A stretch of 64,000 nt of DNA from Candidatus Latescibacterota bacterium. GTDB taxonomy: Bacteria > Latescibacterota > UBA2968 > UBA8231. Where the stretch lies: positions 2,208,001-2,272,000 of the forward strand of contig CBDFJF010000001.1 in NCBI GenBank assembly GCA_965248265.1, given 5' to 3'. A program made the translations under genes and the position numbers. Positions 7,353 through 27,288 of this stretch are shown one piece after another. The notes beneath the pieces are model-generated. The model was not told where the DNA came from and ran no database searches. It saw nothing but the letters and a program-made list of their open reading frames with translations. Position 1 is the stretch's first letter. The number at the start of each line of letters is the position of its first letter.

Positions 7353-8333
7353 ATGAGCACTGAACCACTGGTGAGCGTGCTGATGCCCACCTACCGGCGA
7401 GCGGCGTACATCGGTGAGGCGGTCGCGAGCATTCTTGGCCAGACCTTCAGCGACTGGGAACTGATCGTCATCGACGACGGCTCAGACGACGGCACCGAGG
7501 CCGTGGTGTGCGGTGTGACCGATCCGCGAGTCCGCCTGCTACGCCAGCAACACCGCGGTATCAGCGCAGCTCTCAACACGGGGCTGGCGGCTGCGCGGGG
7601 ACGTCTGGTGGCCCGGCTTGACTCGGACGACATCTGGCTGCCCGACATGCTCGAAACCCAGGTTGCTGCACTCGATCGGGTGCCAGAGGCCTGTCTGTCC
7701 TATGCCCGGGGCCAGGCCATGAGTACCACTGGCGCACTGCTCCAAGATGTGTGGGGCCTGCCCCTTCACTACCCTGGCGACGCCTTCCGCAGCATGGTGT
7801 TGGGTGACTCGACCTGTAACATCACTGTGGTAGTACGACGGGCCTGCCTGGACCGCGCCGGTTCCTTCGACGAGTCCATGCAGACCGGCGAGGATTGGGA
7901 TATGTGGCTGCGCGTTTCGCGACATGGCCAGTTCGTCTTCACCGACCGGGTGCTGGCGCGCTTCCGCCGGCACGGGGAGCAGATATCGGAAAGACCGACA
8001 CGCGACCGCGACCGCGCGGACCGGGTGCGGGTTCTCGACAAGCTGTTCCGAGACCCGAGCCTGCCGCCCGAAATCGGGGCGCTTCGCGGCCTGGCCTACA
8101 GCAACGTGGCGACCGGCAACGGACTGATGTGGCTGGTGGAAGGTAAATACGGCCTGGCGGCACGCGCTTTCGCACATGCGCTGCGCATTTCGCCCCAGCC
8201 GCTCCTGACAATAAGCCGCATCACCTGGTTCGGCCTGCGCTGGCGAGTGCTCGACCGAAACCGGTGGGGCCGTTGTCTGGCCAGTGGCTTTACACGCCTG
8301 CTACACCGCACACGCCAGCGAGGGGAGAGATGA
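7353..8333 (+). CDS. GT2 family glycosyltransferase
   Basis: LVSVLMP.Y, DDGS.D, LDSDD, EDWDMW. Confidence 0.9.
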   Translation: MSTEPLVSVLMPTYRRAAYIGEAVASILGQTFSDWELIVIDDGSDDGTEAVVCGVTDPRVRLLRQQHRGISAALNTGLAAARGRLVARLDSDDIWLPDMLETQVAALDRVPEACLSYARGQAMSTTGALLQDVWGLPLHYPGDAFRSMVLGDSTCNITVVVRRACLDRAGSFDESMQTGEDWDMWLRVSRHGQFVFTDRVLARFRRHGEQISERPTRDRDRADRVRVLDKLFRDPSLPPEIGALRGLAYSNVATGNGLMWLVEGKYGLAARAFAHALRISPQPLLTISRITWFGLRWRVLDRNRWGRCLASGFTRLLHRTRQRGER

Positions 8334-10852
8334 CGTTCGACATGACGACGCCCCAGGATCCACAGCCTGGCTGGTCGGTCAGCCCTCGCTTGGCCATCGC
8401 CGTCCTGCTCCTGCTGTCGACGGCGGCGCTGGCAGCGCGCGTCATGCCCATCTGGTCCCAGATTTTCCCCGCACCGGGGCACGTCCGCCTTCTGGGTGTG
8501 GACCCGTATTACCACCTTCGGCACGCCCGCTTCGTTGCCGACAACATCCCGCACCTGCAGCGCTGGGACGTCGGCACACACTACCCGGACGGGCAGTGGT
8601 CTGACGCTGCGGGTCTGTTCGATCTCGCGATGGGCTCCGCCGCGTGGTTGATCGGCCTGGGCGACCCCACGAACGACCTCGTCGACCGCGTGGTCGCCTG
8701 GACGCCGCCGCTACTTGCCGCGCTGTCGATCTGGCTGTTGTACCTGCTTGCCCGCACAATGCTCGATCGGCGGACGGCTCTGCTAGCCGCCGCGATCTTT
8801 TTGATCTACCCGGGCTCTTCGTTACATCGGTCTCTACTCGGTTTTGCCGATCACCACGTCGCCGAAATCGTCCTGGCCCTGCTGACCGCCTGGGGGTTGA
8901 TGCGCTGTCTGCAGACTGGCGAATCCTCAAAGCCGGTGCCGCCATGGTGGCGACCGGCGTGCGAGTACGCCTGGCCTTTGGCCATCTTCCTGTTTACGTG
9001 GGTCGGCGCGCCGATATACGTGTTGCTCGTGTTTGTGGTGCTGCTAATCGTCGCCACAGTGGAGATCGCCCACGGCGGAGATTCCAACGCTGCGGCACAC
9101 GGCGGACTGCGCTACGGCAGTGCCCTGCTGCTTATGGTAGGGGTGTCCTCCGTCCTGTGGCCGGACCTGGTGATGTCCCCGAAACGTTTCTCCCCCGCGC
9201 TGCTGGGATGCGCGGCAGTGGCACTCGTACCGGCCGCTTACGTGTTCGCCGCACGCCGGCTCCTGCGCCGGCTGAATCGACCACGCCTCATCGCCTTCTT
9301 CGCGGCGGCTGTCGTCGTCGTTCTCGCTGCCCTCTTCATGGCGCACGCGGACCAGGCCCGCCATCTCGCCGCGCTGCTGCTGACGCCCAAACGCTCGGCA
9401 CTTACCGAGCACCTCGTCATCGACTGGCGCCTTTACGGAAAGCTGCTGGGAGCACCGGGGCTCCTGGCCCTGGCTGCCTTGCCCCTGGGACTGTGGCGGG
9501 CTGTTCGGCGTCCCGGCGACCGCTTCTGCCTGGTACCGCTCCTCTTCGGGGTGCTGCTCATAGGGCTCTGGCTCAGAACGCACGATTATGACTATGCCCC
9601 TCCTGTTTTCGTAGCCCTGATGGCCGCTTTCGTGACGGCGGAGGTGGCCGGCCGCATCCCGGCGCGGCACGTCGCGTGGATGCGCTGGGTGGGTTCCACG
9701 ACGCTCGCGGCGCTCTTGCTGTGCCCGATCTGGCCGTTACGGCTGGTGGCGATGCCCATGGCAACGGCCCGGATGGCCACCAACCACTCAATGACCACGC
9801 AGGCCTGGGAGCAGGCCATGACGTGGATGCGTCAAAACACACCGAAGCCTTCGCTACCGGTCGATACCCGGGTGGAGCCGTTTGGAGCCGGATTCGACTA
9901 CCCGCCTGGCACCTACGGGGTCTTCACTGCCTGGGATTTTGGCAACATCGTGAACACCTTGGGAGAACGGGTACCGGTGTGGAGCCGGTGGCCGTCCGCT
10001 CGCACAGCCATGTGGATTGTGAGCGAGGACGAGGAGGAATCGCTCGGCTTGTTGTGCCCTGGCTGCGAGGAAGGCGAGGAGGTCCGCTATGTCGTTCTGG
10101 AGGCCCGCACCATCGCCCAGCATTTCCTGGGCAAGGTCCTGGCAGCCGGCCGTCAGCTCAGGGACTATGACACTGGGAGAGAGAACTGGCAGTCACTCGA
10201 AGAGGACGAGAAGATCCTGAATCGCACATACGGTCACAAGTACGAGCGGTCGATGGCGGTCCGTCTGTTCCGGGATGACGCCCGCCACCTCGGACACTAC
10301 CGGCTCGTGTACGAGTCTCCCCGCGAGAGCTACATTACGTACCAGCTGAAGTTGGGGACCAACACCCTCAGGCGGCTCGCCTACGATATCAAATCCGACA
10401 GGCAGCGCGAGGTCGTCACCGGTCGCGCCCGAACAGGACAGGTGACCCGCTTCGGAAACCACTATCAGTACGATGGCATCGTGACGCCTTCGGTCAAGAT
10501 CTTCGAGGTCGTACAGGGCGCGCGCCTGACGGGTGAGGCACGCGCCGGAACGGCAGTGGAGGCTCGCCTGGAACTGCGCTGCGGGTCCGGCGGACGCAGG
10601 GTGGATTACGTCAGATCCGTCGTAGCCGGATCAGACGGCCACTTCGACCTCGTGGTCGCGCACTCCTCCGAACCGGTGACAGACAACGCGACCTGCGAGG
10701 CCATCGGACCCTATTCCCTGTTCGTACGCAACACCCTTGAGAGTGAGATGGTGCCGGCAGGAACCGTCGCCATCTCGGTTCGGCAGGTCCGCGATGGTGC
10801 CCACGTCGATTTAGGTAGATTTTTGGAAGAATGGAAGAGACCCCCGAAATAG
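8330..10852 (+). CDS. STT3/AglB-type oligosaccharyltransferase (archaeal-like architecture)
   Basis: G.DPYYH.R...P....D..T.YP.G N-terminal motif, many TM helices, DHH.AE, A..W...NTP, AWDFG (WWDYG equivalent), L.HYRLVYES, VKIFEVV.GA.L.G; ATG 8330 after AGGGGAG. Confidence 0.85.
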   Translation: MTFDMTTPQDPQPGWSVSPRLAIAVLLLLSTAALAARVMPIWSQIFPAPGHVRLLGVDPYYHLRHARFVADNIPHLQRWDVGTHYPDGQWSDAAGLFDLAMGSAAWLIGLGDPTNDLVDRVVAWTPPLLAALSIWLLYLLARTMLDRRTALLAAAIFLIYPGSSLHRSLLGFADHHVAEIVLALLTAWGLMRCLQTGESSKPVPPWWRPACEYAWPLAIFLFTWVGAPIYVLLVFVVLLIVATVEIAHGGDSNAAAHGGLRYGSALLLMVGVSSVLWPDLVMSPKRFSPALLGCAAVALVPAAYVFAARRLLRRLNRPRLIAFFAAAVVVVLAALFMAHADQARHLAALLLTPKRSALTEHLVIDWRLYGKLLGAPGLLALAALPLGLWRAVRRPGDRFCLVPLLFGVLLIGLWLRTHDYDYAPPVFVALMAAFVTAEVAGRIPARHVAWMRWVGSTTLAALLLCPIWPLRLVAMPMATARMATNHSMTTQAWEQAMTWMRQNTPKPSLPVDTRVEPFGAGFDYPPGTYGVFTAWDFGNIVNTLGERVPVWSRWPSARTAMWIVSEDEEESLGLLCPGCEEGEEVRYVVLEARTIAQHFLGKVLAAGRQLRDYDTGRENWQSLEEDEKILNRTYGHKYERSMAVRLFRDDARHLGHYRLVYESPRESYITYQLKLGTNTLRRLAYDIKSDRQREVVTGRARTGQVTRFGNHYQYDGIVTPSVKIFEVVQGARLTGEARAGTAVEARLELRCGSGGRRVDYVRSVVAGSDGHFDLVVAHSSEPVTDNATCEAIGPYSLFVRNTLESEMVPAGTVAISVRQVRDGAHVDLGRFLEEWKRPPK

Positions 10853-10874
10853 CAATTGGCAAGGGAATGGTGAG

Positions 10875-12683
10875 ATGCTAACGCATCTCAAGAAATGCGC
10901 CGCGATGGTGCCCCGCGAGATGCGGCTCCAATGGGGGTCGGTGGTCCCGTTGATTTTGCTGACGGCGGCTACCGAGTCTGCTGGCGCAGCGGTCGTCTAT
11001 GCGCTGGTGAAGATTGTCGCGGACCCGTCCCGCGTGGCTGAAATTCCGGTAGCTGCGACCATCGCCGCGTGGCTGCCGTGGCAGGACCGGGCGTCGGTCG
11101 TCGCTGCATTCGCGACCGTGGCTGCGTTGTTCTACGTAACGAAGAACGCGGTCCTGATCTGGGTGGGCACCACGCGTACCAGAATTGAGGTCAAATCGGT
11201 GGCCTTGCTGGCCAGCCGCATGTTCAGAGGGTACCTGATGACACCGTACCCCTTCCACTTCCGTCGCAACTCCGCCGACCTGATCCGCCAGACCAATCAG
11301 TCGGTGAATATGATGTTCAGCGTGCTCTCGTCCAGCGCCACAGTGGCCTCCGAAATGCTCGTCACTCTGGGGTTCGTCGTAGTTCTGATGTTTGCGGCCC
11401 CGGGAAACACGCTCATCGCCGGCGCACTCCTGGCAGGGTTGCTGGCCCTTTTGCTCAAACTCGTACGGCACCGCACGATCCAGCTGGGCACGCGGGGGCA
11501 TCACCTTCGTATGGCCCTCGTGCAGAGCGTCCAGCAAGGACTGGGTGCCATCAAGGAAATCAAAGTACTCGGCCGCGAGCGGCACTTTGACGACGCGCAT
11601 GCGAACGGCCAGGCGGAGCTCTCACATGTACTGGTGTCGAGGGCGCGGCTGGATGCCATGCCGCGCCTGGTAACCGAATCCGCCTTCGCCGTTGGTGCAT
11701 TGATCGTGGTCGTGCTGATGACCTGGAACGGCGGCCCCGCGTCGGACGTCACCCCTCTGTTAGGCTTGTACGGCTATGCCGCGCTGCGGTTGCTGCCGTC
11801 CGCCAACCGCATGCAGTGGTTGCTTAACGAGATCCGCTACCACAGCACTGTCGTGGACCAGTTGTACGCAGACTTCCTGTTCGTCAACCGCCAACCAAAC
11901 GTGGATCGCGATGCTCCCCCGGAGGGCGACCCGGGGTTCAGCGCACTGGTGCTCGATCGGGTTGGCTACGTATACGATGGCACCGAGACGCGGGTTTTGG
12001 ATGATGTCCACCTCACCATCCCGGCCGGCGAGTCAATCGGCGTGGTCGGCCCGACGGGCGCTGGCAAGAGCACCCTCGTCGACGTGATCGTCGGCCTGTT
12101 GAGTCCATCTACCGGACGAATCACTGTCGATGGCGTCGATCTTTCTCGGCGGTTGTCGTGGTGGCAGCGACGAATCGGCTATGTGCCGCAAGAAACCTAT
12201 CTCGTCGATGACAGTCTCCGCCACAACATCGCTCTGGGCATTTCCGATGAAGAGGTAGACGACGACAGTATCCGTGCCGCTGCTCGGATGGCGCAGCTGG
12301 ACGAGTTCGTGGCCTCGCTGCCCGAAGGATTGGGTACCTTCGTCGGGGAGCGCGGCATCAGACTCTCCGGCGGGCAGCGGCAGCGCGTAGGGATTGCCCG
12401 CGCACTCTATCATCAGCCAGATGTGCTGATCTTCGACGAAGCCACCTCGTCGTTGGACAACGCCACGGAGGCCGAGGTCACGAAGGCCATTGAAGCGCTG
12501 TACGGCGTGAAGACGTTGGTGGTGATCGCACATCGTCTGACCACGGTTCAGCGTTGCGACCGGTTGGTGCTTCTCGAAGGCGGACGCGTCGCCGCGAGCG
12601 GCACGTTTGATGAACTCATGCACAGTTGCGCCGCGTTCCGCCGCCTTGCCGTGCCCGACGAGCAGTCTCAACATCCTGCTTGA
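10875..12683 (+). CDS. ABC transporter (TMD+NBD), PglK/MsbA-like lipid-linked oligosaccharide flippase
   Basis: GPTGAGKST, LSGGQRQR, DEATSSLD, AHRL; TMD with IKEIK and RLLPS motifs; directly after the OST. Confidence 0.8.
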   Translation: MLTHLKKCAAMVPREMRLQWGSVVPLILLTAATESAGAAVVYALVKIVADPSRVAEIPVAATIAAWLPWQDRASVVAAFATVAALFYVTKNAVLIWVGTTRTRIEVKSVALLASRMFRGYLMTPYPFHFRRNSADLIRQTNQSVNMMFSVLSSSATVASEMLVTLGFVVVLMFAAPGNTLIAGALLAGLLALLLKLVRHRTIQLGTRGHHLRMALVQSVQQGLGAIKEIKVLGRERHFDDAHANGQAELSHVLVSRARLDAMPRLVTESAFAVGALIVVVLMTWNGGPASDVTPLLGLYGYAALRLLPSANRMQWLLNEIRYHSTVVDQLYADFLFVNRQPNVDRDAPPEGDPGFSALVLDRVGYVYDGTETRVLDDVHLTIPAGESIGVVGPTGAGKSTLVDVIVGLLSPSTGRITVDGVDLSRRLSWWQRRIGYVPQETYLVDDSLRHNIALGISDEEVDDDSIRAAARMAQLDEFVASLPEGLGTFVGERGIRLSGGQRQRVGIARALYHQPDVLIFDEATSSLDNATEAEVTKAIEALYGVKTLVVIAHRLTTVQRCDRLVLLEGGRVAASGTFDELMHSCAAFRRLAVPDEQSQHPA

Positions 12684-12758: not shown

Positions 12759-13658
12759 TTGACACTGCCACTCGAACCCATGCTGCGGAAGCTCAGAGCT
12801 GCCGTCGGTTACGGAGCGCCTCTCTTGCGGGCGCGACGATCCGGAACACGTCGTGTTGGCGTGATGACCTGCACCCTCGACGAAGCGGCGTGCGCGGCCT
12901 TCACCGTAGGGGCGTTCGCCGATCTCGTCGACACCTACGTGCTCATCGACACGGGGTCGACCGATGGGACCCTGCCGTTGATCGAGAACATGTATGCTCA
13001 GCAGATTTCCGATGGCCGGCTGATCGTTGAGCAACTCGGGCGCCTTCCGGACTTCAGCATGGCGCAGGCGCGGGCGCGGGCGCTGGAGATTCTCCGTGCC
13101 CAGGAGATTGACTACTTCCTCAAGATTGACGCCGACGAAGTGTTCTACGACGCCGGCGCACACAGACTCGTGCAGATTGCCCGCCGGCTTCCGTCACCCG
13201 TCACCTACGTATCATGCTCGCTCCGGGAGCTCTACCAGTGGGAGCTGCAAACCACGAGCGATTGGCTACAGGCGCTCGACGAGCAACGCGATGTCTTCTG
13301 GGAGATGTCGTTCGTTCCCCACAAAGATCTTGTCTTCCGCGTGACGGGAGCGTACACTCACGGCCGGTGGACGGACGAAGCCCAGGGCCTCCCCGCAGAG
13401 GGCATCGCCCATCACGGCCCCATGGTTCGAGAGCGGGCAATAGGGGTCCTGGCCGCGCACTACGGCTGGGCGCGCCCCGTCGAGTGCAAGCGCGCCAAGA
13501 GCCTCGCTTGGCATGGCGATCCCGCGGCAGATCCCCGCGTCGATCGCCTCCACCACCTCACCGACGATCGGCGGCGACCCCGCCGTCGGTTTCGCCGCCA
13601 CCCGGAGGTTATTCGCAGAAAGCTGGGTGCGGTGCGGGAATGGCTTCACGCCCGCTGA
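12759..13658 (+). CDS. Divergent GT2-like glycosyltransferase
   Basis: IDTGSTDGT, IDADE, HYGWAR motifs; start uncertain. Confidence 0.7.
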   Translation: MTLPLEPMLRKLRAAVGYGAPLLRARRSGTRRVGVMTCTLDEAACAAFTVGAFADLVDTYVLIDTGSTDGTLPLIENMYAQQISDGRLIVEQLGRLPDFSMAQARARALEILRAQEIDYFLKIDADEVFYDAGAHRLVQIARRLPSPVTYVSCSLRELYQWELQTTSDWLQALDEQRDVFWEMSFVPHKDLVFRVTGAYTHGRWTDEAQGLPAEGIAHHGPMVRERAIGVLAAHYGWARPVECKRAKSLAWHGDPAADPRVDRLHHLTDDRRRPRRRFRRHPEVIRRKLGAVREWLHAR

Positions 13659-13674
13659 CCAAATGAGTGATTCT

Positions 13675-14841
13675 TCAACGCAACAGCGATATCATCTGCT
13701 CCACTGCTTCCGGCTCAAGATCTAATGTTCGGGAAATTTCGCGGCTGGGTGTATCGTGCTCCATATAGTACAGACAGAGAAGCCAATTACGCACTGCAGC
13801 AGGTTGCTTCGAAAACACGGTCCCGGTCAAGTCATCGAACGAGCGCACACAGTTGTGGCAGTAGTAACGGCGCAGATGCGGTAGAGCATCATCCGAGCCA
13901 CTCTGGCTAAACTCGTCGCCGCCACATTCCGGACAGAATATGCCCTTATCCCATCGGACACGGCGAAGCGTTTCAAAACAGCTGGCGTCGTCCGCGAGGT
14001 CGCCGGTCTCGAGTTTTCCTGAAAATGCGACGCTCGGCGTTGGCAAGACCCTGGCGATTTCTTTTTCAATGCCATTCAATTGCCACGCAGCATCGGAAAA
14101 GGAGCTGCCGAAACTGCCGATCACTTTGCGACATCTCGACAGGCAGTACAGATCAACCACAGCGTCTTAAATCGCTATCGGATCATTCCGATCGTAGGAT
14201 CTCTTCCGGTGTGTGCTTATTCGCTTAGGAAAGGCCTCTCGCAGCCGTTTCTCCTCCGCTGCAGAGTCGGAGGCGACATAAAATACAGTATCGCTATTCG
14301 CTCCTATTTCCTCTTCCATCAAACGAATGAATTCCTCGGTCGGGCTATATCTAATTGGCCACTCCCCATCCGCGCGCCTCAAGTGAACTCCAACCATTTG
14401 ACCAGATTCACCGAACCGAGAATCGATGAGCCGCTGAAGCGGCTGAATCGGCACGAAATCGCCGAAGCGAGAGGTTCCTTCGTGAAATCGTTTGCAGGCG
14501 ATGATATCGGTTTTCTTGCCTCTGACTATGCCCTCGAGATCACAGCCTCGCTCATGTAAATCCTGCATGTTGGCATCTGTCAAATGCAGGTTGAAAAACA
14601 TTCGGAATACTAGGCGAATCAGCCGCAGAACGATTTTACCCGTAAGACTATTTCCGTTAACGTGGTATAGCCTTTTGACACTGGCAGGCAAAATGAAGAG
14701 GTCGTCAAACCTGCAATTCAATTCTGGACTTAGATACCAGACGACGTACAGCTCTTCTTGTGTTGCCTTGCAGAGAGAGATAGCGGAGTCCAAGCTCCGC
14801 ATGCGATTGCTCAAACCGGCCAGAGGTACGATCGCTATCAT
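13675..14841 (-). pseudogene. O-fucosyltransferase/GT11-like glycosyltransferase interrupted by an in-frame TAA and fused to an IS1595-type zinc-ribbon/HTH domain
   Basis: GLSNRMR and GVHLRR.D motifs; reads PIAI*DAVVDLYCLS in one frame (stop 14167-14169); tail RW..G..CP.CG..RY.C..C..SF.DLTGT.F. Confidence 0.75.
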
Positions 14842-15806: not shown

Positions 15807-16130
15807 ATAGGGTGGGCACTGGGAGACAATCACATGACGTTCTATAGTCAGTCCGGTCAAGATCGGTTTCTTGATTCGAAAATCTTCCACAAACTCTCCG
15901 GACGCCGCAGACGGTCAACCCTCGAAACCTGCAAACGGTTCACGTGCGGGTGTGTGGGTGGGGCTGCAGGAAATATCCGCTCGCGCGAGGGGAACAAAAT
16001 CACGCATCCTCAAAGCGCTCGGCAATCGCTCCCCGTCTGTCACGCTCCTCCCTCCCTCGCAAGTTAACCACGGGCAACTGTCAGGCGGAATCGAGCTTGT
16101 CGGGGTGCAGGCCATTCGCCTCACAGCCGC

Positions 16131-16919: not shown

Positions 16920-17013
16920 TTGTCGGATTCCTATATATACAAGATCACGGTCGGATGTCCATGGAGGGTCATGGCCGGCTTCTCTGGGTGGCCGACATTG
17001 TTCTCCACGACGT

Positions 17014-17763: not shown

Positions 17764-17964
17764 CTCACTGCCGTCGTGCCGGGATGGGTCGGGCCTCGTG
17801 GGAGCTGCTGCACTCGAGGCAAGGGGTTTACTGTTTGTGGGCCCCAGCAGCAAAATAGGCCGGTCGGCGTTGAGCAGACCTCTCTCAACCAGTCTGAAAA
17901 ACTCTGCGTTCTCCCCATCCAATCACCACCTGAGACAAGAGGTCACGCCACTCGCCGGCTTTCG

Positions 17965-19812: not shown

Positions 19813-19831
19813 AAATGGCGCCAGTGACCGT

Positions 19832-20764
19832 ATGCGACTAACCGTTGCGATATGTACTTGGAACCGGGCAAGCTTGCTTGATCGGACTCTGGCACGGATC
19901 GCGCAAGATGAGACGACTGGACTAGAATGGGAAGTACTGGTCGTCAACAACAACTGTACAGATGACACAGATGCTGTGATCGCACGACATCAGCGGCACC
20001 TGCCGGTGCGCCGGATACTGGAGCGCAGGCAGGGCCTCTCCAACGCCCGCAACGCTGCCGCGATGGCGGCGCGCGGAGATCTTATCGTATGGACTGACGA
20101 CGATGTCCTTGTCGGCGACGGCTGGTTGCGTGCGTACGAACGGGCCGCCCGCCTGTACAGTGAGAGTTCCTTCTTCGGGGGACCGATAGTCCCGGAGTTC
20201 GAAGGCGCGGCACCGAAGTGGCTCATGGCTGCTCTGCCACACGTAGGGGGTGTGTACGGTACGCTCGATCTGGGTGTGGAAACTCACGAGCTCACCCCTT
20301 CCGCCCTGCCCTTCGGTGGGAACTTCGCGGTTCGGACTGCAATTCAGCGATCGTACTTGTATGACCCGGATGTTGGCCGCATTGGGAAGGGCATGTTGAG
20401 CGGGGAAGAAACGACGGTCATGCTCCGGATGCTTGGCGACGGGTACAGTGGACAGTGGCTCCCCGACGCCACACTCCAACACTTCGTACCACGAGAGAGA
20501 CAGACCGCAAGACACATTCGGAGATACCACAGCGGCAGCGCGGAGACACAGGAGCGACGTCGGCCTTGCGGCAAGGGACCGTTGATTTTCGGGAGACCCA
20601 GGGGTCGCCTTTGCAGGCTCGTCATCGCAGAGTTGTGGTACCGCATCCGACGGCTGTCCTCACCTCCTGAGGTTTGGATCAAGGACCTGATCAGAGTAGG
20701 CTGCCTGGAGGGGGAGTGGCGTGGTTTGACGCCGCCGAGCGCAAGACCGTGCGCTGGGGCCTGA
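19832..20764 (+). CDS. GT2 family glycosyltransferase
   Basis: TVAICTWNR, NN..TD.T, GLSNARN, TDDD. Confidence 0.88.
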   Translation: MRLTVAICTWNRASLLDRTLARIAQDETTGLEWEVLVVNNNCTDDTDAVIARHQRHLPVRRILERRQGLSNARNAAAMAARGDLIVWTDDDVLVGDGWLRAYERAARLYSESSFFGGPIVPEFEGAAPKWLMAALPHVGGVYGTLDLGVETHELTPSALPFGGNFAVRTAIQRSYLYDPDVGRIGKGMLSGEETTVMLRMLGDGYSGQWLPDATLQHFVPRERQTARHIRRYHSGSAETQERRRPCGKGPLIFGRPRGRLCRLVIAELWYRIRRLSSPPEVWIKDLIRVGCLEGEWRGLTPPSARPCAGA

Positions 20765-20805
20765 TCGTTCGCTTACGCGCAGTGCATGGTCCTGGCCTCA
20801 GAGCG

Positions 20806-22062
20806 ATGTGCGGTGAGAGAATCAAGTCGTTTTTGCGTCATCTTCGCGTAGGGCTGCTAAAGTGCACGAGCCTGGGCAGGCGACTGGTCGATTGGAGGCT
20901 TCAACGCCGGATCCGCTCGGTACCTCTTGAGCGACTGTTGATGGGCCAAGAGGCAGGTATTCCAGCGGCAGTCTACTCGCGATACGTTGACGATCCGATG
21001 CGCCCTTCGACGCCAGTTGCGCATTCGCCCCATGTGAAATTGCTCGAACAGTACGTGGCAGACGGTGCGAATCTGTTCCAGCGGGACGTGTTTCACAAGA
21101 CCGACTACTATCGGTCTGCGTGCAAGACAATTGATATTGCCGGGAACTACTTCGAGGCTCGCTCAGAAGACCAGATAGTTGATGTCGCACGACGCTTTGT
21201 GGCTTGGTTCAGAGGTGTTGCGGGCACGGCAACAGGGACCCAACCAGGACGCTCAGCTCCCGGTTCTCCGGTAATCGTACAACCCGTGCGATTCTCAAAC
21301 TGCTACCAGGTTGTTGACGGCCACCACCGGTTGGCAATCCAGTGCGCACGGGGCGCATCCGAAGCAAGTGTACTCCCGGTACGTTCCGAGGTTTTGACAC
21401 CAATCCAGTCAACCGTTTTGGACGTAGTTTGGACGGCTGGGCGGCGCGAGCTGTATCAACCCATTGACGCCCCTGAGCTTCAAACCTGGCCGTTAGTAAG
21501 GCGTTGCTCAGATCGCCTGGAGAAAATGCGCGAGTTCCTTCGAGATGAGGGAATTCAGGCGAGCTCCGGCAGCAGCTATCTGGATGTCGGATCGAGCTAC
21601 GGCTGGTTCGTCAGCCAAATGCTGAGGCTCGGATTCGACGCCTGCGGGGTGGAGATGGACCCGGTCTCGGCTTCGATTGGTCCGATGGCGTACGGGTTAG
21701 ACCCTGCGAGAGTCCACGTCATGGATAGCATCAGCTTTCTCCGGTCGAATTCAAAGCAGTTCACCGTCACGTCGTGTTTCAGCGTCATTCATGTCTTTGC
21801 GACTGGGAAGAAGTCGATCTCAGCCGAGGAGTTCATTCGACTCGTCGACTTGAGCACTGAGAAAGCTATGTTCATCGACACGGGACAGAACCACGAGACT
21901 TGGTACCGCGAATCACTTGCCCAATGGGACGAGGACTTCATTCATGACTGGCTCTTAAGGAACACTTCCTTCCATCGCATCGAACGCCTGGGCGTTGACC
22001 AAGATGCGGTTCCTCCGTTTGAGGACTCCTACTCGCGAATGCTGTTTGCATGCACCAGATGA
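20806..22062 (+). CDS. ParB/Srx-like domain fused to a class I SAM methyltransferase
   Basis: P.IV.......YQVVDGHHRL motif, then YLDVGSSYGWF motif I; start uncertain. Confidence 0.7.
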   Translation: MCGERIKSFLRHLRVGLLKCTSLGRRLVDWRLQRRIRSVPLERLLMGQEAGIPAAVYSRYVDDPMRPSTPVAHSPHVKLLEQYVADGANLFQRDVFHKTDYYRSACKTIDIAGNYFEARSEDQIVDVARRFVAWFRGVAGTATGTQPGRSAPGSPVIVQPVRFSNCYQVVDGHHRLAIQCARGASEASVLPVRSEVLTPIQSTVLDVVWTAGRRELYQPIDAPELQTWPLVRRCSDRLEKMREFLRDEGIQASSGSSYLDVGSSYGWFVSQMLRLGFDACGVEMDPVSASIGPMAYGLDPARVHVMDSISFLRSNSKQFTVTSCFSVIHVFATGKKSISAEEFIRLVDLSTEKAMFIDTGQNHETWYRESLAQWDEDFIHDWLLRNTSFHRIERLGVDQDAVPPFEDSYSRMLFACTR

Positions 22063-22086
22063 CCAAGCGCCAGCGGCGGGGGCACC

Positions 22087-23058
22087 TCATTGGTGCTCGG
22101 TGGAGACCTTCCTCACTTGCTCCTCGATCCACGGATAGGTCTCGCCGATTCCGTCCCGCACAGTGTACTTCGCCGACCATCCCTGCGACATGATCTTGTC
22201 GACCTTGTGATACCTTGCCTGTACGCCGACCGGCCCTTCGACGTACTTGATGCCGATCTGCTTGCCGGCTACCTCGGCCACGGTATCCACCAGTTCCTGG
22301 ACTGTCGTCAGCTCGGTGCTGCCAATGTTGGTCGGTTCAGTAACATCTGATTGCATCAGTGTGTATATGCCAGTGCACATGTCTGCGACGTAGGTGTATA
22401 CTCGCAGCGCGCTCCCATCTCCCCACACCTCGATCTCGTCGCCATCGCTGGCCATCGCGACCTTCCGACACAGGGCGGCAGGTGCCTTCTCGCGCCCGCC
22501 TCGCCATGTGCCTTCCGGCCCGTAGCAATTCTGGAAACGGGCGATACGGACATCCAAACCTCGGTTTCGCGAAAACGCCAAAGCCACACGTTCTGCGTAC
22601 AGCTTCTCCCAGCCGTACTCATTGTCGGGCAGGGCCGGATACGCATCTTCCTCTGCGATGTACGATTCACCCTGCTGCTGGTCGCGATACACACAGGCTG
22701 ATGAAGAAAGGAAGTAGCGACCAACTCCTGCGTTGCAGGCTTCACTCACCATGTGAAGGTTGGCCAGCCCGCTGTTGATCATGATCTCGCATTCGGCCGA
22801 ATGGATGAAACCCATCCCTCCCATGTCGGCGGCGAGCTGGTAGACTTCGTCAAAATCGTCACGGCCATCAAACGCCACCGCCCGTTCGCAGTTACCGCGA
22901 TCCCGCAGGTCGAGCAGCTGGAAATCATCGGCACTCGACGCGGAGAACTCCGGCTCTTTCAGGTCTACGCCTCTGACCCAGTAGTCTCGAGCTTTCAGGA
23001 ACCGGACGAGATGATGGCCAATGAAGCCACCGGCGCCGCAGACAAGTGCCTTTTTCAT
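22087..23058 (-). CDS. NAD-dependent epimerase, GDP-mannose 3,5-epimerase-like
   Basis: GAGGFIG, LAADMGGMGFI, SSACVY, YGWEKL, GGREKAPAA.CRK. Confidence 0.88.
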   Translation of the reverse strand: MKKALVCGAGGFIGHHLVRFLKARDYWVRGVDLKEPEFSASSADDFQLLDLRDRGNCERAVAFDGRDDFDEVYQLAADMGGMGFIHSAECEIMINSGLANLHMVSEACNAGVGRYFLSSSACVYRDQQQGESYIAEEDAYPALPDNEYGWEKLYAERVALAFSRNRGLDVRIARFQNCYGPEGTWRGGREKAPAALCRKVAMASDGDEIEVWGDGSALRVYTYVADMCTGIYTLMQSDVTEPTNIGSTELTTVQELVDTVAEVAGKQIGIKYVEGPVGVQARYHKVDKIMSQGWSAKYTVRDGIGETYPWIEEQVRKVSTEHQ

Positions 23059-23284
23059 GAGTAAGACCTTTCGTGCGCTACCTCGAAAACGGTGGAGTGT
23101 GACCGGTGCTCTCAAACATGGCGGATTGAAGCGAAATCCCCAAAGCTTCAAGCGTGTCCCCACGTGGCATAGACAGCTCTACGGATTTCAGCATAGATTC
23201 TCTCCTTCCATGCCCGGCGTCCACCGTTGCGCCTTTCCAACACCTTAGTGGTAGCTCCCCATAGGGGTTGACGCTCCGACTCAC

Positions 23285-24757
23285 ATGACCACCTGCATAG
23301 TCGCCTTTCTAATCGCGTTTTTCGTGTCAATTGTCATTACTCGGTCGATTATCCGCGTTGCCGTCCGTCTCGACTTCGTGGATAAACCTGACTACGTACG
23401 AAAGTTTCACCAAAACGCCGTGCCGTGTGTAGGTGGCGTAGGCATCTTCATCGCGTTCTTTGTGCCCGTCGCAGCACTGTTCTTCTTCTACAAGAATTTC
23501 ATCTCCGAGCAGCTACTGCACCTTCCCATAGAACTTCTGGGTCTGACGGCAGGAGCGACCATCGGGTTGGGACTGGGATTTTTTGACGACGTCCGCGGCT
23601 TGCGCATGCGCTGGAAGCTTCTGCTTCAGGCTGTTGCAGCGACTGCGGCCTTCGCCACCGGTTATGCGATCGCTGAGATCAGTATACCGTTTGTTGGTGT
23701 GATTGAAGTAGGGGTCATCAGCTATCCTCTCACTCTGTTTTGGTTCTTGGGCTGTATGAACGCTCTGAATTTTCTTGACGGACTGGACGGGCTGGCAGCC
23801 GGTGTGAGTTTGCTGGTGTCGATTACGCTGTTTTTGGTCAGTCTCATTTTTGAAAACCGGGTCGGCATGGTGCTGTCGATCAGTCTGGCTGGAGCTATCC
23901 TGGGTTTCCTGCTCTACAATTTCCACCCTGCACGCATTTTCCTTGGTGACTCGGGCAGCATGCTCCTCGGATTCCTGATCGGGGCCCTGTCGATTCTGGC
24001 AGGTAGAAGCACCGAGAACACGACGACCGTCTCACTTTTCATTCCCCTTATCGCCCTCGGTTTGCCGATCCTGGATACTTGTCTCGTGATTGCCCGACGC
24101 TGGTTTCGCAGGGTTCCTATCGCCGAGGCTGACCGCCGTCACATCCACTACGCTCTGATCTCGATGGGCCTGAGTCACAAGCGCACGGTCCTCATTCTCT
24201 ACCTGGCCAGTGTTGTATTCGGTGTTTGCGCCCTGTTGATCACATTTGAGCGAGGCGAGGTGGTCATCCTGGTTCTTGGAGCAATGTGTATTATCGGCTT
24301 TGTTTGTGTGCGCGTGTTTGCTGGAGTGACGATGGCTGCTCTTTTCAGCAGAGGGTTTGACGCCGGTGCCAGATCCGCACTGGAGAGGGCGCTGCTGGAA
24401 ATGCACGTTGAAGACACCCCAGAGCGTGTCTGGCGTTGCTGTCACCCAGTGTTGGCAGCGGTCGGGTTAGACCGGGCCGAACTGCATCTGCTTGACGAGG
24501 TCTCAGCACAGATGACGATATTGCGATGGACCCGAACGGATGATGCCGAGCCAAGTGATCCTGTACCCGGCAGTGGCGATCATTGGTCCGCCAATCTCAC
24601 GATCTATTCGCCGACTTCCGACATCAAGGGAGAATTGGTCGTGGCCAAGACGTCGCGACTCGGACATCGGGCAAGCCTGGCTTCAGAAGTCCTCGACACG
24701 TTACGCCTGGCCCTAGGCGCAAACCTGGAACGCCTCAAAACACCCCCTGAGTCATAA
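23285..24757 (+). CDS. WecA/TagO-like polyprenyl-phosphate GlcNAc-1-P transferase (MraY-like family) with soluble C-terminal extension
   Basis: RK.H...VP..GG, G..DD, NFLDGLDGL, NFHPA.IFLGDSGS, D..HIH. Confidence 0.9.
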   Translation: MTTCIVAFLIAFFVSIVITRSIIRVAVRLDFVDKPDYVRKFHQNAVPCVGGVGIFIAFFVPVAALFFFYKNFISEQLLHLPIELLGLTAGATIGLGLGFFDDVRGLRMRWKLLLQAVAATAAFATGYAIAEISIPFVGVIEVGVISYPLTLFWFLGCMNALNFLDGLDGLAAGVSLLVSITLFLVSLIFENRVGMVLSISLAGAILGFLLYNFHPARIFLGDSGSMLLGFLIGALSILAGRSTENTTTVSLFIPLIALGLPILDTCLVIARRWFRRVPIAEADRRHIHYALISMGLSHKRTVLILYLASVVFGVCALLITFERGEVVILVLGAMCIIGFVCVRVFAGVTMAALFSRGFDAGARSALERALLEMHVEDTPERVWRCCHPVLAAVGLDRAELHLLDEVSAQMTILRWTRTDDAEPSDPVPGSGDHWSANLTIYSPTSDIKGELVVAKTSRLGHRASLASEVLDTLRLALGANLERLKTPPES

Positions 24758-24787
24758 CCCAAGCAAAGAGGAAGAAAGAGCATCGGA

Positions 24788-25963
24788 CTATCTCGAGAAA
24801 TCCCTTACGACTGTCCGCAGCTGATCCACGAACCGATCTGCCGAGAACAACTCCTTCCGGCTCAACACATACTCGCTGAGAGAAATTTGTAGTTCTGAAT
24901 CTGAAAGAACCCGGTCGATCCTGTGAACTGCCTGTTGCACATTTCCGTAAAGTAGCCGTTCATCTCCACCGACGATCTCTACGGGCCCCCCCTCGTCTGG
25001 CACGAACACGATGCACCCGGCCCGCTGCAGCTCCGCCACCACAATTCCGAAGTGCTCGCCTGCCATGCCGTGAATTCCATATCTGTTGTTTGCCATCAGG
25101 TCGACGAGTTCGCCGCGCGGCAAATCTATATGAATGTTCACCCAGGTTTGATGGCGTGCAGCCAGTTCAAAAACGGCACGTGTATAGGGTTTACTATCGG
25201 GGGTTCCGACCAGGTGAAAGTTAATATCGTGTCCTCGCTCACGCACCTGAGCGAGGATTTCAATCAGCTTGAGCTGATCCTTTTCTGGGGAAATACGGCC
25301 GACGCAGACGAAGCCATTGTCGCGCTCTATCCAGGGCACTTCGGGGAAGAACCCTGGAACTGGCGGATACAACGTCGTCGAATCAACACAGTACGCCTCG
25401 TGCATCTTGCCGGCGATGTAGTCAGAATTCACCAGCGACAGGTTTTTCCGCATGCCATCAACATCGAACCCACCGATAGCCAACTTGCACGTTGCCCTAT
25501 AGCCTTCCAGCAGTGCAGCGGGGGCGTGATACCAGCGTAGATCCACCTCGGGGCGCGGCAAGTAACCCCACGGGAAGTGAATGTACTGAATACCTCGCTG
25601 TCCGAAATCGACCTCGTTGGCGGTACTGATGACCGCATCGTAGTGGTGGGTCTTCAGGTGCGCTTTTGTGGCTCGGAAGAAGAGGCACATGTGCAGCAAG
25701 CTCAGTGGTGTGGGCGCCACATCCAACAGGGCATGTAGGCCAGTATTGGTGAGGTGTAGTCTGAAATCGGAAGGCTTCAATGACGTGCCGAAGAATCTGT
25801 TGACTGCGTTACAGTCGCATGGCTTCGTGGTCAACAGGGAGACATCGTAGCAACCCCGCAGGGCCTGCAATACCCACGAGGCGACCGCGTTGCTGCCTCC
25901 AGGCGGTTGCAGGGACGGCTGAGTGACAAGCACTTTTTTTCTGGTACGAGTGCTTTCACTCAT
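24788..25963 (-). CDS. GT4 glycosyltransferase, ALG11-like
   Basis: YIHFP, VNS, LYPP, RISPEK and EHFGIVVAE parallel ALG11 YVHYP, NS, YPP, RPEK, EHFGI.VVE. Confidence 0.7.
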   Translation of the reverse strand: MSESTRTRKKVLVTQPSLQPPGGSNAVASWVLQALRGCYDVSLLTTKPCDCNAVNRFFGTSLKPSDFRLHLTNTGLHALLDVAPTPLSLLHMCLFFRATKAHLKTHHYDAVISTANEVDFGQRGIQYIHFPWGYLPRPEVDLRWYHAPAALLEGYRATCKLAIGGFDVDGMRKNLSLVNSDYIAGKMHEAYCVDSTTLYPPVPGFFPEVPWIERDNGFVCVGRISPEKDQLKLIEILAQVRERGHDINFHLVGTPDSKPYTRAVFELAARHQTWVNIHIDLPRGELVDLMANNRYGIHGMAGEHFGIVVAELQRAGCIVFVPDEGGPVEIVGGDERLLYGNVQQAVHRIDRVLSDSELQISLSEYVLSRKELFSADRFVDQLRTVVRDFSR

Positions 25964-25965
25964 TG

Positions 25966-27288
25966 TCAATACCCCAGCAACCCTGCTCGTGCGTGTTTCC
26001 GCCAACTCTCATCCCAGCTTTGTTGCCGGCAACCGGCAACTCCGAGGCGCAACTCGTCCAGTAGCGGGGTGTCGGTTGGGAAGCCACTGAACAACTCGCG
26101 CAACTGCTCTTTCAATTCGGCCGGACCATCGAAAACCAGTCCGTTCACTCGATGTTGGACCTGCTCTGCCAGACACGGTCCGTAGTTCAAGGCGGACACG
26201 GGTAATCCGGCGCCAAACATGTCCATGATTTTCATCGGCAGGTCTACCTTGGACGACGACCGGTGGAGGCATAAGCCCAGATGCACAGCTCCAAGCAAGC
26301 GTTGGTACTCGCGGTACGGCAACCACAGCGTGCGCAGATGGACCCGTGACGGAGGCAGTCGCATGGCCTCACGTTCGAAAGCCATCTGCCCAGGACCCTT
26401 TCCCGTGATTAGAATCACGAAATCGGGCATCGCCTGGTCATATTCTTGTGCTGCTATTTCCAACAGTAACGAGACCTCTTCATCATAGGTCCAACTCGTT
26501 GGACAGACGATCCACACCGGTGGCCGTGGCGTTATCGGCAATTCGAGCTCCTGACGAAGCCGCCCGAGCAACTCGCGGGCCGGCTCTGGTGCGGTTGGCT
26601 CGAATCCCTGCGCGGGTCGATCATAGAGCAGAACAGGATCGGCAAACCCCCACCGCTGGGTCAGTTGAGCTTGCATCGCGGCTGAAACACACAGGTGATG
26701 ATCCGCCCTGCCGCCGCATGTTCGTTCCAACCATTGGTGGAGGAATACCAGCGGGCTTCGCCGTCCCAGCCGGAGGGCGACCATCGAATAACCGTAATTG
26801 TGCCAATCGATGACGTACCTGGCCGAGCGCAGACGCGCGACAACGAATGCTACCAGCAGAGTCGGTATTGATGGTGGATTCTGCACGAACACAGTATCGG
26901 GACTTCTGAGGCCGAACAGCAGGGCCCGCGTAAGTTGGATCGTATCCTGCAGTACTCTTACAACTGAGTGCATGACGAACAGCAGTCGGTTCCTACGCAT
27001 GAAGTCACTGGCCGAGGTCCGACGGAGCGCGTGGACCCTGATCATGGGATGATTCTCAACTGCATCAAACAAGTCGGTTTCCGCATAACCTACGAGGTCG
27101 ACCGCCGCCCCGGCATCGGCCAGAGATCGGGCGTGGTACTGCATTCGCGGGCTGCGGCCCAAGTCGCCCAGAACCACGATCGCCACCCGGTGTGCTGGAA
27201 CGGACTGTAGGTGATCCGGTATCAATTTCTGAGTCGTCAGTATCCCGAGTACCCTCACGCGAACCCCAGGCAGTTCCCGGGGACGCAA
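25966..27288 (-). CDS. ALG1-like (GT33) chitobiosyl-diphospho-lipid beta-1,4-mannosyltransferase
   Basis: VLGDLGRSPRMQYHA.SLA, QNPPSIPTL, IDWHNYGYS, LYDRP, TSWT.DE, ITGKGP, LG.CLH.SSS..DLPMK..DMFG; true start may be ~20-30 codons later. Confidence 0.88.
   Translation of the reverse strand: MRPRELPGVRVRVLGILTTQKLIPDHLQSVPAHRVAIVVLGDLGRSPRMQYHARSLADAGAAVDLVGYAETDLFDAVENHPMIRVHALRRTSASDFMRRNRLLFVMHSVVRVLQDTIQLTRALLFGLRSPDTVFVQNPPSIPTLLVAFVVARLRSARYVIDWHNYGYSMVALRLGRRSPLVFLHQWLERTCGGRADHHLCVSAAMQAQLTQRWGFADPVLLYDRPAQGFEPTAPEPARELLGRLRQELELPITPRPPVWIVCPTSWTYDEEVSLLLEIAAQEYDQAMPDFVILITGKGPGQMAFEREAMRLPPSRVHLRTLWLPYREYQRLLGAVHLGLCLHRSSSKVDLPMKIMDMFGAGLPVSALNYGPCLAEQVQHRVNGLVFDGPAELKEQLRELFSGFPTDTPLLDELRLGVAGCRQQSWDESWRKHARAGLLGY

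Follow-up and report, generated by a model that had tools for sequence, protein, structure and literature searches.

A tRNA-flanked island of a Latescibacterota bacterium with an AglB-type oligosaccharyltransferase and candidate genes for a lipid-linked oligosaccharide

Lipid-linked oligosaccharide (LLO) transfer by an oligosaccharyltransferase (OST) of the STT3 family is known from the eukaryotic pathway, from the AglB systems of Archaea and, among Bacteria, from the pgl locus of Campylobacter jejuni. Here, we analyse a 64,000-nt stretch of the chromosome of Candidatus Latescibacterota bacterium (NCBI GenBank assembly GCA_965248265.1, contig CBDFJF010000001.1, positions 2,208,001 to 2,272,000 of the forward strand; the whole of it is called the window below), in which a block of genes at 7353-27288 encodes a long AglB-type OST (OST-1), an ABC half-transporter, a polyprenyl-phosphate sugar-1-phosphate transferase, a relative of the mannosyltransferase ALG1 and several other glycosyltransferases (GTs). 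An earlier note, made from the DNA alone, had seen in this block a candidate eukaryote- or archaea-like N-glycosylation system. Our gene calls, based on open reading frame (ORF) listing, Pfam and NCBIfam, recovered all the genes that it had named, each where it had been placed. Judging from homology, we consider that the island probably builds an LLO and passes the complete glycan on to proteins of the periplasm or the cell surface, a reading to which we give a probability of about 0.6.

With the eukaryotic LLO pathway the block shares the order of enzyme types, namely a PNPT initiator, an ALG1-like enzyme, a GT4 in which an EX7E motif is present, a flippase and an OST of the STT3 family; furthermore, related cassettes in other bacteria, as distinct from the window, have a MurG-like GT28 enzyme and an ALG2-like GT4 with a G-rich loop and the EX7E-with-Val motif. 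Unlike in the eukaryotic pathway, the carrier is presumably undecaprenyl instead of dolichol, flipping would be performed by an ABC exporter instead of Rft1, and the GT28 of the relatives is a fused MurG paralog rather than a split Alg13/Alg14, the genome under study having neither a GT28 of this kind nor an ALG2-like gene. Lumenal GT-C ALG enzymes and accessory OST subunits are also missing, and the glycan of the island would probably be fucosylated or L-galactosylated, and methylated.

The likeness to archaeal AglB, as in Archaeoglobus fulgidus (AglB-L) and the Methanosarcinales, concerns the long architecture of OST-1 (STT3 N-terminal region, AglB core, AglB_L1), which has the same Asp, Asp-His-His and EL5 Glu residues and is a single-subunit enzyme encoded next to GT genes. 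The differences are the bacterial host, a score below the cut-off of the archaeal model TIGR04154, membership of a separate all-bacterial clade of 42 rows and a degenerate WWDYG motif; in addition, the LLO enzymes of the window are of bacterial ALG1, GT4 and WecA types and not those of the usual archaeal Agl sets. The pgl system of C. jejuni is, like the island, a bacterial locus in which an STT3-family OST stands beside an MsbA-class ABC flippase and GTs building an oligosaccharide on undecaprenyl diphosphate. In contrast to it, PglB is the OST type most distant from OST-1 by fold and sequence, matches to the PglK and PglI models fall well short of the respective cut-offs, and the initiator belongs to the WecA/MraY family, PglC being a member of a different one.

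More recently, the main text of a preprint (10.1101/2025.10.15.682550) has described 204 bacterial ALG1 homologs, with complementation of yeast alg1 and mannosylation of GlcNAc2-PP-phytanyl (GlcNAc, N-acetylglucosamine; PP, diphosphate) by those of Gammaproteobacteria, Polyangia and Binatia, and has reported that bacterial ALG1 and ALG2 homologs rescue yeast mutants and, in vitro, assemble Man1-3GlcNAc2 (Man, mannose) on a carrier lipid. The ALG1-like protein of the window is about 50% identical to proteins of Candidatus Binatia, the Binatia homolog being one of those active on GlcNAc2-PP-phytanyl, and the Myxococcota, a phylum in which we find complete cassettes, include the Polyangia, a class from which ALG1 and ALG2 homologs with activity were obtained. 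Each enzyme is dealt with singly in the preprint, whose main text, supplementary tables aside, reports no linkage with OST, flippase or MurG-like genes. In the open full texts, from which subscription papers may differ, we found no account of a bacterium whose own genes for ALG1/ALG2 homologs are combined in one cassette with those of a MurG-like enzyme, a flippase and an OST of the STT3 family. Lombard (2016; PMC4973528), in the passages devoted to Alg1, reported no prokaryotic relatives and proposed this enzyme as a eukaryotic invention.

The oligosaccharyltransferase and its relatives

OST-1 (8330..10852, plus strand, 840 residues) matches the Pfam STT3 N-terminal domain (E 2.4e-19) together with AglB_core-like and AglB_L1. 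Against the NCBIfam model TIGR04154 (archaeo_STT3) it scores 315.7 bits (E 7.1e-94), residues 45-835 of the 862-residue ORF translation starting at 8264 being aligned to model positions 1-821 of 831; this score is below the curated cut-off of 450 bits and, by the NCBI rule, OST-1 is classed as a relative and not as a member of this family of archaeosortase A-associated AglBs. Its best sequence match in the PDB is A. fulgidus AglB-L (E 2.1e-25), and no PglB chain is among its six phmmer matches at E <=0.01. An AlphaFold2 model, built from an alignment of 23 of 51 relatives, reached a pLDDT of 88.3 and a pTM of 0.88 and consists of a series of long helices, which ends at about residue 465, and a mixed alpha/beta domain after it. 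In Foldseek comparisons the model was closest to A. fulgidus AglB-L (TM 0.72-0.76, E 1e-31 to 4e-33), with lower values for STT3 (0.48-0.57) and PglB (0.43-0.46). A PglB-type system was set aside, PglB being the most distant OST type by fold, and the assignment of the gene at 8330 to the AglB/STT3 type, already made in the earlier note, is upheld by the Pfam domains, by the full-length alignment to TIGR04154 and by the best match in both sequence and fold.

The functional residues of A. fulgidus AglB, as listed in PMC8342417, include Asp47, Asp161/His163 and the TIXE Glu360, whereas the WWDYG motif and the DK/MI motif make up the Ser/Thr pocket. Residues D58, D174 and H176 of OST-1 (840-residue numbering) align to Asp47 and Asp161/His163, respectively, and are invariant in 23 of 23 clade sequences, as is the EL5 glutamate, E360. 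The latter is aligned with the archaeal TIXE Glu in an alignment of 119 rows and offset by two residues in the pairwise phmmer alignment to A. fulgidus AglB, and the Thr at -3 is Ala in the window. The first Asp of DXD, the Asp-His-His and the EL5 Glu are kept across all the clades of the 119-row alignment. The pocket motif is degenerate only in the 42-row clade, in which the subclade of the window keeps Trp-Asp-x-Gly and the aligned Lys; WWD-x-G is kept in the archaeal (37), Chloroflexota (23) and Planctomycetota/L159 (7) rows, with the exception of two Chloroflexota rows having WGDYG. In the DK/MI columns, a gapped region of the alignment, the window subclade has an acidic residue and Lys, the archaeal rows have Asp and Gly-Lys-Phe, and the Verrucomicrobiota members of the clade are devoid of the Lys.

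The relatives were collected by scanning genome contigs and metagenome contigs with a profile of the family alignment (80 loci each, numbered with the prefix L), which was used instead of the single OST protein, whose profile scan of genome contigs had found no relative. The tree (FastTree, 119 rows, midpoint root for drawing only) leaves out 66 of the 185 available rows, namely the metagenome loci L103-L174 except L159 and L162, and it gives no direction for gene transfer between Archaea and Bacteria. The well-supported, all-bacterial clade of 42 rows includes both OSTs of the genome (see below) and sequences from Verrucomicrobiota, Zetaproteobacteria, Myxococcota and Alteromonadaceae, plus one from Planctomycetota; the other groups are the Methanosarcinales-type AglBs, the Chloroflexota (23 rows), the Planctomycetota with L159 and L162 (7 rows) and Coxiellaceae-like Gammaproteobacteria (4 rows). 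The existence of separate bacterial OST clades among AglBs agrees with Lombard (2016; PMC4973528), where a few bacterial homologs are described as nested among euryarchaeal AglB. A Bacteroidota-labelled OST (L079, from a metagenome-assembled genome of Pedobacter sp.) is nested within the Methanoperedens-type AglBs, due to either a recent transfer or a binning error.

The genome encodes a second intact AglB-type enzyme, OST-2 (G000:C1:1202926-1205391; loci L002, L083 and L084), which is 50% identical to OST-1 and is surrounded by genes for a metallophosphoesterase, an aldo-keto reductase and a fumarase, the nearest glycosylation-type gene being that of a GT4 about 7 kb upstream. Each of the two paralogs has its own close orthologs in other assemblies, at 58-81% identity (for OST-2, up to 81% over aligned columns), which indicates that the duplication is older than this genome. 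In another assembly, a relative belonging to the paralog clade is found as pieces of 405, 75 and 220 residues on one 3.18-Mb contig and is possibly a pseudogene.

Genes for the lipid-linked oligosaccharide and their recurrence

OST-1 is part of a plus-strand operon with GT2a (7353..8333; Pfam Glycos_transf_2, E 4.2e-32), the ABC half-transporter (10875..12683) and a possible GT2 (12759..13658; Glycos_transf_2 at 20.5 bits, below the 23.3-bit cut-off, and no NCBIfam match). GT2a overlaps the OST gene by ATGA at 8330-8333 and is translationally coupled to it, and the ABC gene starts 22 nt after the OST. The product of the ABC gene, which the earlier note had also seen next to the OST, carries ABC_membrane and ABC_tran in one chain, belongs to the MsbA/PglK/HepA class and is a candidate LLO flippase. 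The designation as PglK-like, instead, proved not to be specific, since the HepA (266 bits), PglK (262 bits; NF050066, 261.6) and MsbA (260 bits) models match about equally and all far below their cut-offs, which for PglK is 1000.

The candidate initiator (23285..24757, plus strand) is a protein of 490 residues with a C-terminal extension of about 150 residues. It is a member of the WecA/MraY family of polyprenyl-phosphate sugar-1-phosphate transferases (PF00953, E 1.3e-40), scoring 139.4 bits against the 27-bit cut-off of Glycos_transf_4 (MraY/WecA/ALG7), and in the PDB it is about equally near MraY (62.5 bits, E 3.4e-16) and human DPAGT1 (53.7 bits, E 1.6e-13). The earlier name of WecA-type GlcNAc-1-phosphate transferase is thus correct as to the family but not as to WecA itself, the model TIGR02380 being matched at 116 bits against a cut-off of 326.

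On the minus strand, the ALG1-like gene (25966..27177), encoding a candidate beta-1,4-mannosyltransferase of the GT33 type, is followed by that of GT4b, a retaining GT4 (24788..26005, with a likely ATG at 25963). The ALG1-like gene itself is confirmed, but the start at 27288 formerly given for it is not, the database form of 403 residues placing the start near 27177; its stop is two bases ahead of the GT4b ATG, which bears out the translational adjacency previously noted for these two GT-B genes (27288-24788). In the ALG1-like protein Pfam shows generic GT-B domains only, phmmer found nothing in the PDB at E up to 1, and no other GT4 of the genome was matched by it at E 1e-8. Among the 10 protein-atlas matches listed for it, all with a score of 0.99, eukaryotic clusters account for 7, and the name is beta-1,4-mannosyltransferase or chitobiosyldiphosphodolichol beta-mannosyltransferase in 6; moreover, 2074 homologs were retrieved, and those about 50% identical include the Candidatus Binatia proteins and many that JGI names beta-1,4-mannosyltransferase. 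The eukaryotic ALG1 neighbours, these names and the active bacterial homologs of the preprint strengthen the ALG1-like call, and the protein is probably a member of the ALG1 family.

It is different for GT4b, which had been called ALG11-like. Pfam finds Glycos_transf_1 (E 1.2e-17) and Glyco_trans_1_4 in residues 224-379 and nothing N-terminal at E <=0.01, ALG11_N (PF15924) is not detected, and the PDB yields weak, generic GT4 matches only; with an EX7E motif that is generic and with atlas neighbours that are generic bacterial and archaeal GT4 clusters, the name has no specific support. The signature of ALG2, as given in the main text of the preprint (10.1101/2025.10.15.682550), consists of a G-rich loop in the N-terminal part and an EX7E motif with a conserved Val. 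GT4b has the EX7E with Val at the matching place and an N-terminal loop that departs from the published pattern; a separate ALG2-like GT4, found in L007, L012, L100, L180, L159 and L011, fits both motifs better.

The linkage of these genes to OSTs elsewhere was followed by tblastn on 26 loci, 21 belonging to the 42-row clade and 5 to the Planctomycetota/L159 clade, seven of which are shorter than 10 kb. Near the OST, a MurG-like GT28 gene was found in 10 of the 26 loci (L006, L007, L012, L096, L097, L100, L102, L180, L159, L162), an ALG1-like gene in 7 (L007, L012, L097, L100, L180, L159, L162), an ALG2-like GT4 in 6 (the loci just listed for it), GT4b in 3 (L007, L097, L100), an ABC gene of the window type, at >=100 bits, in 4 (L004, L007, L180, L159) and a WecA-type gene in one (L159); L180 was reached from the ALG1 side and does not count as an independent OST-side case. 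The most compact example is L159, an 11-kb contig of 74.6% GC in which ABC, WecA, GT28, ALG1, OST and ALG2-like genes are packed in about 10 kb. Homologs of the ABC protein occur in the cassettes of L159 (46% identity), G970 (42%), L007 (41%) and G628 (39%), G numbers denoting genomes, and homologs of GT4b stand beside ALG1-like genes in G628 (50%), G970 (44%), L097 (35%) and L007 (31%), while the initiator has a 41% identical homolog in L159. The GT28 of L097 has both the N- and the C-terminal Pfam GT28 domains, and three GT28 copies score 190-202 bits on the murG model against a cut-off of 250.

Looking from the ALG1 side, the Verrucomicrobiota sample (401 genomes including the centre G172, which was chosen for having the feature) contains the ALG1-like gene in 2 genomes and the OST in 3, and both ALG1 holders have an OST within 3-5 kb; in G285, the only unbiased holder, the OST is 3 kb away, with GT28, ALG2-like and ABC genes alongside. 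Two of 401 Myxococcota genomes, G628 and G970, have the ALG1-like gene. In G628 (L184/L185, on the 4.54-Mb contig C1, the ALG1-like match running across the contig ends), homologs of GT4b (50%), ABC (39%) and ALG1 (47-49%) stand next to a GT28 gene and to that of an 869-residue OST which has the canonical WWDYG and is barely similar to OST-1 (Pfam STT3 83 bits; PDB matches to Pyrococcus AglB and STT3 chains). In G970 the ABC, GT4b, ALG1 and GT28 genes are on one 18.6-kb contig, on which no OST was found, the only STT3 signal being one of 22 bits on another contig. An 851-residue frame after the GT28 was considered as an OST and dropped, having no PDB match and an Arg/Ala/Gly-rich, wrong-frame composition.

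According to the earlier note, its proposal would be refuted if ALG1-like and OST genes never co-occurred elsewhere. The data clearly contradict this condition, the two lying together in 7 of the 26 loci and also in two genomes to which the search with ALG1 had led. The pairing is frequent, not obligatory. OSTs of three divergent lineages, at least, are found with the LLO gene set, which keeps its STT3-family partner though the OST lineage changes; no other observation speaks as strongly for a product destined for transfer by an OST.

Other arrangements are found among the relatives. In the cultured alteromonad Planctobacterium marinum strain K7 (L010, 3235-18373), an OST of the same clade lies in a different glycan locus, with two Glyco_transf_15 genes (KRE2/MNT1-type alpha-1,2-mannosyltransferase), two NodZ-like genes, a GDP-mannose 4,6-dehydratase, an AT3-SGNH acyltransferase, a Wzm/Wzt ABC-2 transporter and two short-chain dehydrogenases/reductases (SDRs) 43-47% identical to the epimerase homolog of the window. 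The cassette of L097 includes two Stealth-family genes and an AT3-SGNH acyltransferase (coordinates 915-2039 and 8414-9463).

Boundaries, other genes and history of the island

The block forms an island of 20.3 kb, bounded by tRNA sequence, that a bacterial chromosome has acquired by horizontal transfer. A tRNA-Val(GAC) gene identified by ARAGORN (7005..7081, plus strand) forms its left boundary, and a partial direct repeat of the anticodon arm of the same tRNA (27411..27431, without strand; 19 of 21 bases, at a spacing of 20378 nt in the repeat search) forms the right one, in the gap between the ALG1-like gene and an amidase gene; a tRNA gene with a partial 21-nt copy is what insertion at such a gene usually leaves behind. 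The OST and the ALG1-like gene were each matched in 1 of 168 genomes of the phylum, that of the window itself, and the OST in 0 of 40 other genomes searched as relatives; ALG1-like, GT4b, GT10 and methyltransferase genes are single copy in the genome. The flanks hold bacterial housekeeping genes (PBP5, NamZ, SPOUT methyltransferase, amidase, sigma-70, RecA, PrmC, RF-1, Rho, DnaG, RecQ). On these grounds the bacterial island of the earlier note is borne out.

Inside the island the GC fraction ranges from 0.52 to 0.66, and a middle stretch, from an insertion sequence (IS) fragment through the methyltransferase genes, has 0.52-0.53 against about 0.60 elsewhere. This stretch begins with a minus-strand zinc-ribbon fragment of an IS1595-type transposase (13675..14160; PF12760, E 2.1e-07), which abuts a gene of a NodZ/O-FucT-like family that is short at its C-terminal end and may encode a truncated enzyme of the fucosyltransferase type (14167..14841, minus strand). 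The latter has no Pfam match of its own; 1633 homologs, typically of 260-275 residues, match it end to end, and 4 of the 6 that were scanned have sub-threshold NodZ or O-FucT matches. It is about 45 residues short at the C-terminus in comparison with these homologs, and its position against the zinc-ribbon fragment (13675-14841) suggests that the insertion truncated it.

Then follows, still on the minus strand, a GT10 enzyme of the alpha-1,3-fucosyltransferase type (14853..15890; FucT_N E 3.5e-26, 91.9 bits, and Glyco_transf_10 E 8.2e-21, 74.9 bits, above the Pfam cut-offs of 27.2 and 23.9), whose donor could be GDP-L-fucose or GDP-L-galactose. With it, the several GT2s reported at first are confirmed at 7353, 17014 and 19832, that at 12759 remaining sub-threshold. 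GT2b (17014..17922, minus strand; Glycos_transf_2 E 1.3e-23) has homologs of 35-36% identity in the Alteromonadaceae OST loci L005 and L010, and the best NCBIfam match of GT2c (19832..20764, plus strand; Glycos_transf_2 E 6.3e-20) is HpsE, at 109.5 bits and below the cut-off. The four methyltransferases are supported to different degrees: two are of the FkbM type (17965..18762, minus strand, Methyltransf_21 E 4.2e-07; 19036..19812, plus strand, Methyltransf_21 E 4.8e-13); a third (20674..22062, plus strand) has a weak C-terminal Methyltransf_23 domain (21 bits against a 27-bit cut-off) after about 280 N-terminal residues with no assignment; the fourth (16131..17051, minus strand; 262 residues in the annotated form), with no Pfam or NCBIfam match of its own, is a probable O-methyltransferase dependent on S-adenosylmethionine on the basis of homologs only, some of which JGI names 'predicted O-methyltransferase YrrM', with sub-threshold Methyltransf_24 matches on 2 of 4 scanned. 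The SDR gene at 22087..23163 (minus strand) encodes, as anticipated, a homolog of GDP-mannose 3,5-epimerase: PDB entries 8SG0 and 2C59 match it in full length (residues 38-353; about 244 bits, E about 2e-71), against 80 bits for UDP-glucuronate decarboxylase as the next family. The enzyme would make GDP-L-galactose or GDP-L-gulose.

In comparison with related cassettes the window version is a mosaic, in which the WecA, ALG1, GT4b, ABC and OST genes were kept and those of the GT2s, GT10, GDP-mannose 3,5-epimerase and methyltransferases were gained; the low-GC middle part with its IS remnant and truncated gene fits such a history.

Just outside the island (window 1276-3365), a further GT2 and a membrane protein of the LPG_synthase_TM family are encoded beside the NamZ exo-muramidase gene. 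Farther away, on the minus strand at 39930-45928, three tandem genes encode paralogs of 582-616 residues that have a single Ig-like domain of the DUF1573/ASH/HYDIN type apiece and are probably exported or exposed at the surface.

The proposed pathway and competing explanations

The steps of the pathway are all drawn from homology. The WecA/MraY-family enzyme would transfer a HexNAc-1-phosphate (HexNAc, N-acetylhexosamine), probably of GlcNAc, onto undecaprenyl phosphate. The second sugar, which in the related cassettes would be added by the MurG-like GT28 to give a chitobiose-type core, may here be supplied by GT2a or by another GT2. GT2a is the best candidate replacement, being coupled to the OST and occupying the slot directly upstream of it, which in six loci (L006, L007, L096, L100, L102, L180) is that of the GT28. 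The ALG1-like enzyme would then add a beta-linked mannose from GDP-mannose, and GT4b an alpha-linked hexose; the other GT2s and GT10 would decorate the glycan, the latter with L-fucose or, through the GDP-mannose 3,5-epimerase homolog, with L-galactose, and the methyltransferases would O-methylate the sugars. Finally, the ABC half-transporter would flip the finished LLO to the periplasmic face, where OST-1, and probably OST-2 likewise, would move the glycan to an acceptor, most probably an Asn side chain.

A number of observations weigh against this pathway, and the first of them concern the core of the glycan. The earlier note had seen no equivalents of ALG13/14 and ALG2 in the window, and we find none in the whole genome either (completeness 92.28%): the Alg14 domain PF08660 has no match, the only GT28 matches are to the MurG of the dcw cluster, at 27% identity, with no paralog, and no ALG2-like GT4 was found. 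As a consequence, GlcNAc2-PP-lipid, the acceptor of the characterised ALG1 enzymes, has no obvious source, and the GlcNAc-Man core put forward in the earlier note stays a mere proposal here. Moreover, among 10 genomes with close OST relatives only 4, all Verrucomicrobiota, have the ALG1-like gene, and the IS1595 fragment with the short NodZ-like gene indicates that part of the island is decaying. As for the transfer itself, OST-1 has AWDFG in place of WWDYG, the first Trp is kept in 0 of the 42 rows of its clade, and the Verrucomicrobiota members are also devoid of the Asp; with a degenerate Ser/Thr-pocket motif, recognition of the canonical sequon is doubtful. We infer transfer to Asn, and the acceptor rule of OST-1 may differ from N-X-S/T. 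Lastly, no acceptor protein gene was recognised in the window.

Possible acceptors are seen only near the OSTs of relatives. PEP-CTERM protein genes are located within 3 kb of the OST in five Verrucomicrobiota loci of the Opitutaceae type (L007 12425-13087; L011 2282-3127; L012 2609-3409; L043 12543-13826 and others; L180 14522-16018) by a regular-expression scan, confirmed by Pfam for L007 and L012; such genes are numerous in Verrucomicrobiota genomes generally. In L097 (12468-17015) a 1515-residue autotransporter with 11 PATR repeats is encoded directly after the OST. The closest archaeal OST model is named archaeosortase-associated by NCBI, hence sortase-type substrates may be acceptors. 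The PEP-CTERM idea does not carry over to the organism under study, whose genome gave no PEP-CTERM match and one sub-threshold match to exosortase, and these OST-adjacent proteins are leads for the relatives only.

The pocket motifs could be read in a different way, namely that the LLO is made but the OST clade no longer glycosylates Asn in proteins, and hydrolyses the LLO to free periplasmic oligosaccharides or uses an acceptor other than protein or other than Asn. Degeneration of the Ser/Thr-pocket motifs, WWDYG and DK, is confined to the clade of OST-1, the window offers no recognisable acceptor gene, and OSTs are described in PMC8342417 as releasing free N-glycan from LLO by hydrolysis if a sequon peptide is not bound, an activity tuned by DK-motif residues. 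According to the same source (PMC8342417), though, the Asn carboxamide is activated by the first Asp of DXD and the EL5 Glu, and neither of them varies within the clade. The window subclade retains Trp-Asp-x-Gly as well as the aligned Lys, and the secreted-protein genes adjoining the OST in relatives (PEP-CTERM in 5 loci, the autotransporter in L097) fit protein acceptors. Furthermore, to our knowledge all characterised STT3-family enzymes are N-OSTs, and we regard a loss of transfer to Asn as unlikely. An ordinary surface-polysaccharide locus (O-antigen, capsule or exopolysaccharide) with export by way of an ABC system, in which the OST is a passenger with little functional tie to the GTs, seems to us distinctly improbable. 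Loci for ABC-dependent O-polysaccharides typically contain GT2 and GT4 enzymes, FkbM methyltransferases, an exporter of the ABC class and an initiator of the WecA type, the best NCBIfam matches of the GT2s are exopolysaccharide, colanic acid or teichuronic acid enzymes, all below cut-off, and in P. marinum K7 the related OST adjoins a transporter of the Wzm/Wzt ABC-2 type. But the passenger role is at odds with the coupling of the OST to GT2a and the ABC gene 22 nt behind it, and with the recurrence of the OST/ALG1/GT4b/ABC combination in other phyla and with three OST lineages; the ABC protein is a fused half-transporter of the MsbA/PglK class, not a Wzm/Wzt pair, and the Pfam scans of the block turned up no polymerase, chain-length regulator or O-antigen ligase family.

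Lastly, the island might be a decaying relic whose pathway no longer functions in this organism, as the IS1595 fragment and short NodZ-like gene, the missing GT28 and ALG2-like genes of the relatives and the OST relative broken into pieces of 405, 75 and 220 residues on one contig of another genome could suggest. This we hold to be very improbable: IS fragment aside, 17 of the 18 genes of the block are intact open frames, with only the NodZ-like one shorter than its homologs, OST-1 has a confident model and intact catalytic residues, and a second intact OST has been retained, both paralogs having orthologs at 58-81% elsewhere, which suggests purifying selection. Transfer of the LLO to protein is the reading that we keep as the probable one.

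A broader and tentative proposal, to which we give clearly less than an even chance, is that several bacterial phyla carry an undescribed N-glycosylation pathway whose cytoplasmic half would match the eukaryotic one enzyme for enzyme, with a PNPT initiator, a MurG-like GT28 in the role of ALG13/14, ALG1, ALG2 and a further GT4 building a Man-GlcNAc2-type core on undecaprenyl diphosphate, followed by ABC flipping and by interchangeable STT3-family OSTs of archaeal descent. The window would represent a derived version, in which the GT28 and ALG2 have been replaced, the OST belongs to a clade without the sequon-reading WWD motif and the acceptor site is non-canonical.

The clade-wide loss of WWD points to natural OSTs with possibly new acceptor rules, a matter of interest for glycoengineering, and an OST of the same clade is available in the cultured P. 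marinum K7, though in a different glycan locus. The recurrent cassette gives the bacterial ALG1 and ALG2 homologs a native context that the main text of the preprint leaves unsaid, and suggests for them a role in protein N-glycosylation with a eukaryote-like core. If the enzyme-for-enzyme reading is true, bacteria would hold a eukaryote-like chimera of bacterial mannosyltransferases and an archaeal-type OST, and could plausibly have donated ALG1 and ALG2; with these cassettes, the question of where eukaryotic N-glycosylation came from becomes directly testable.

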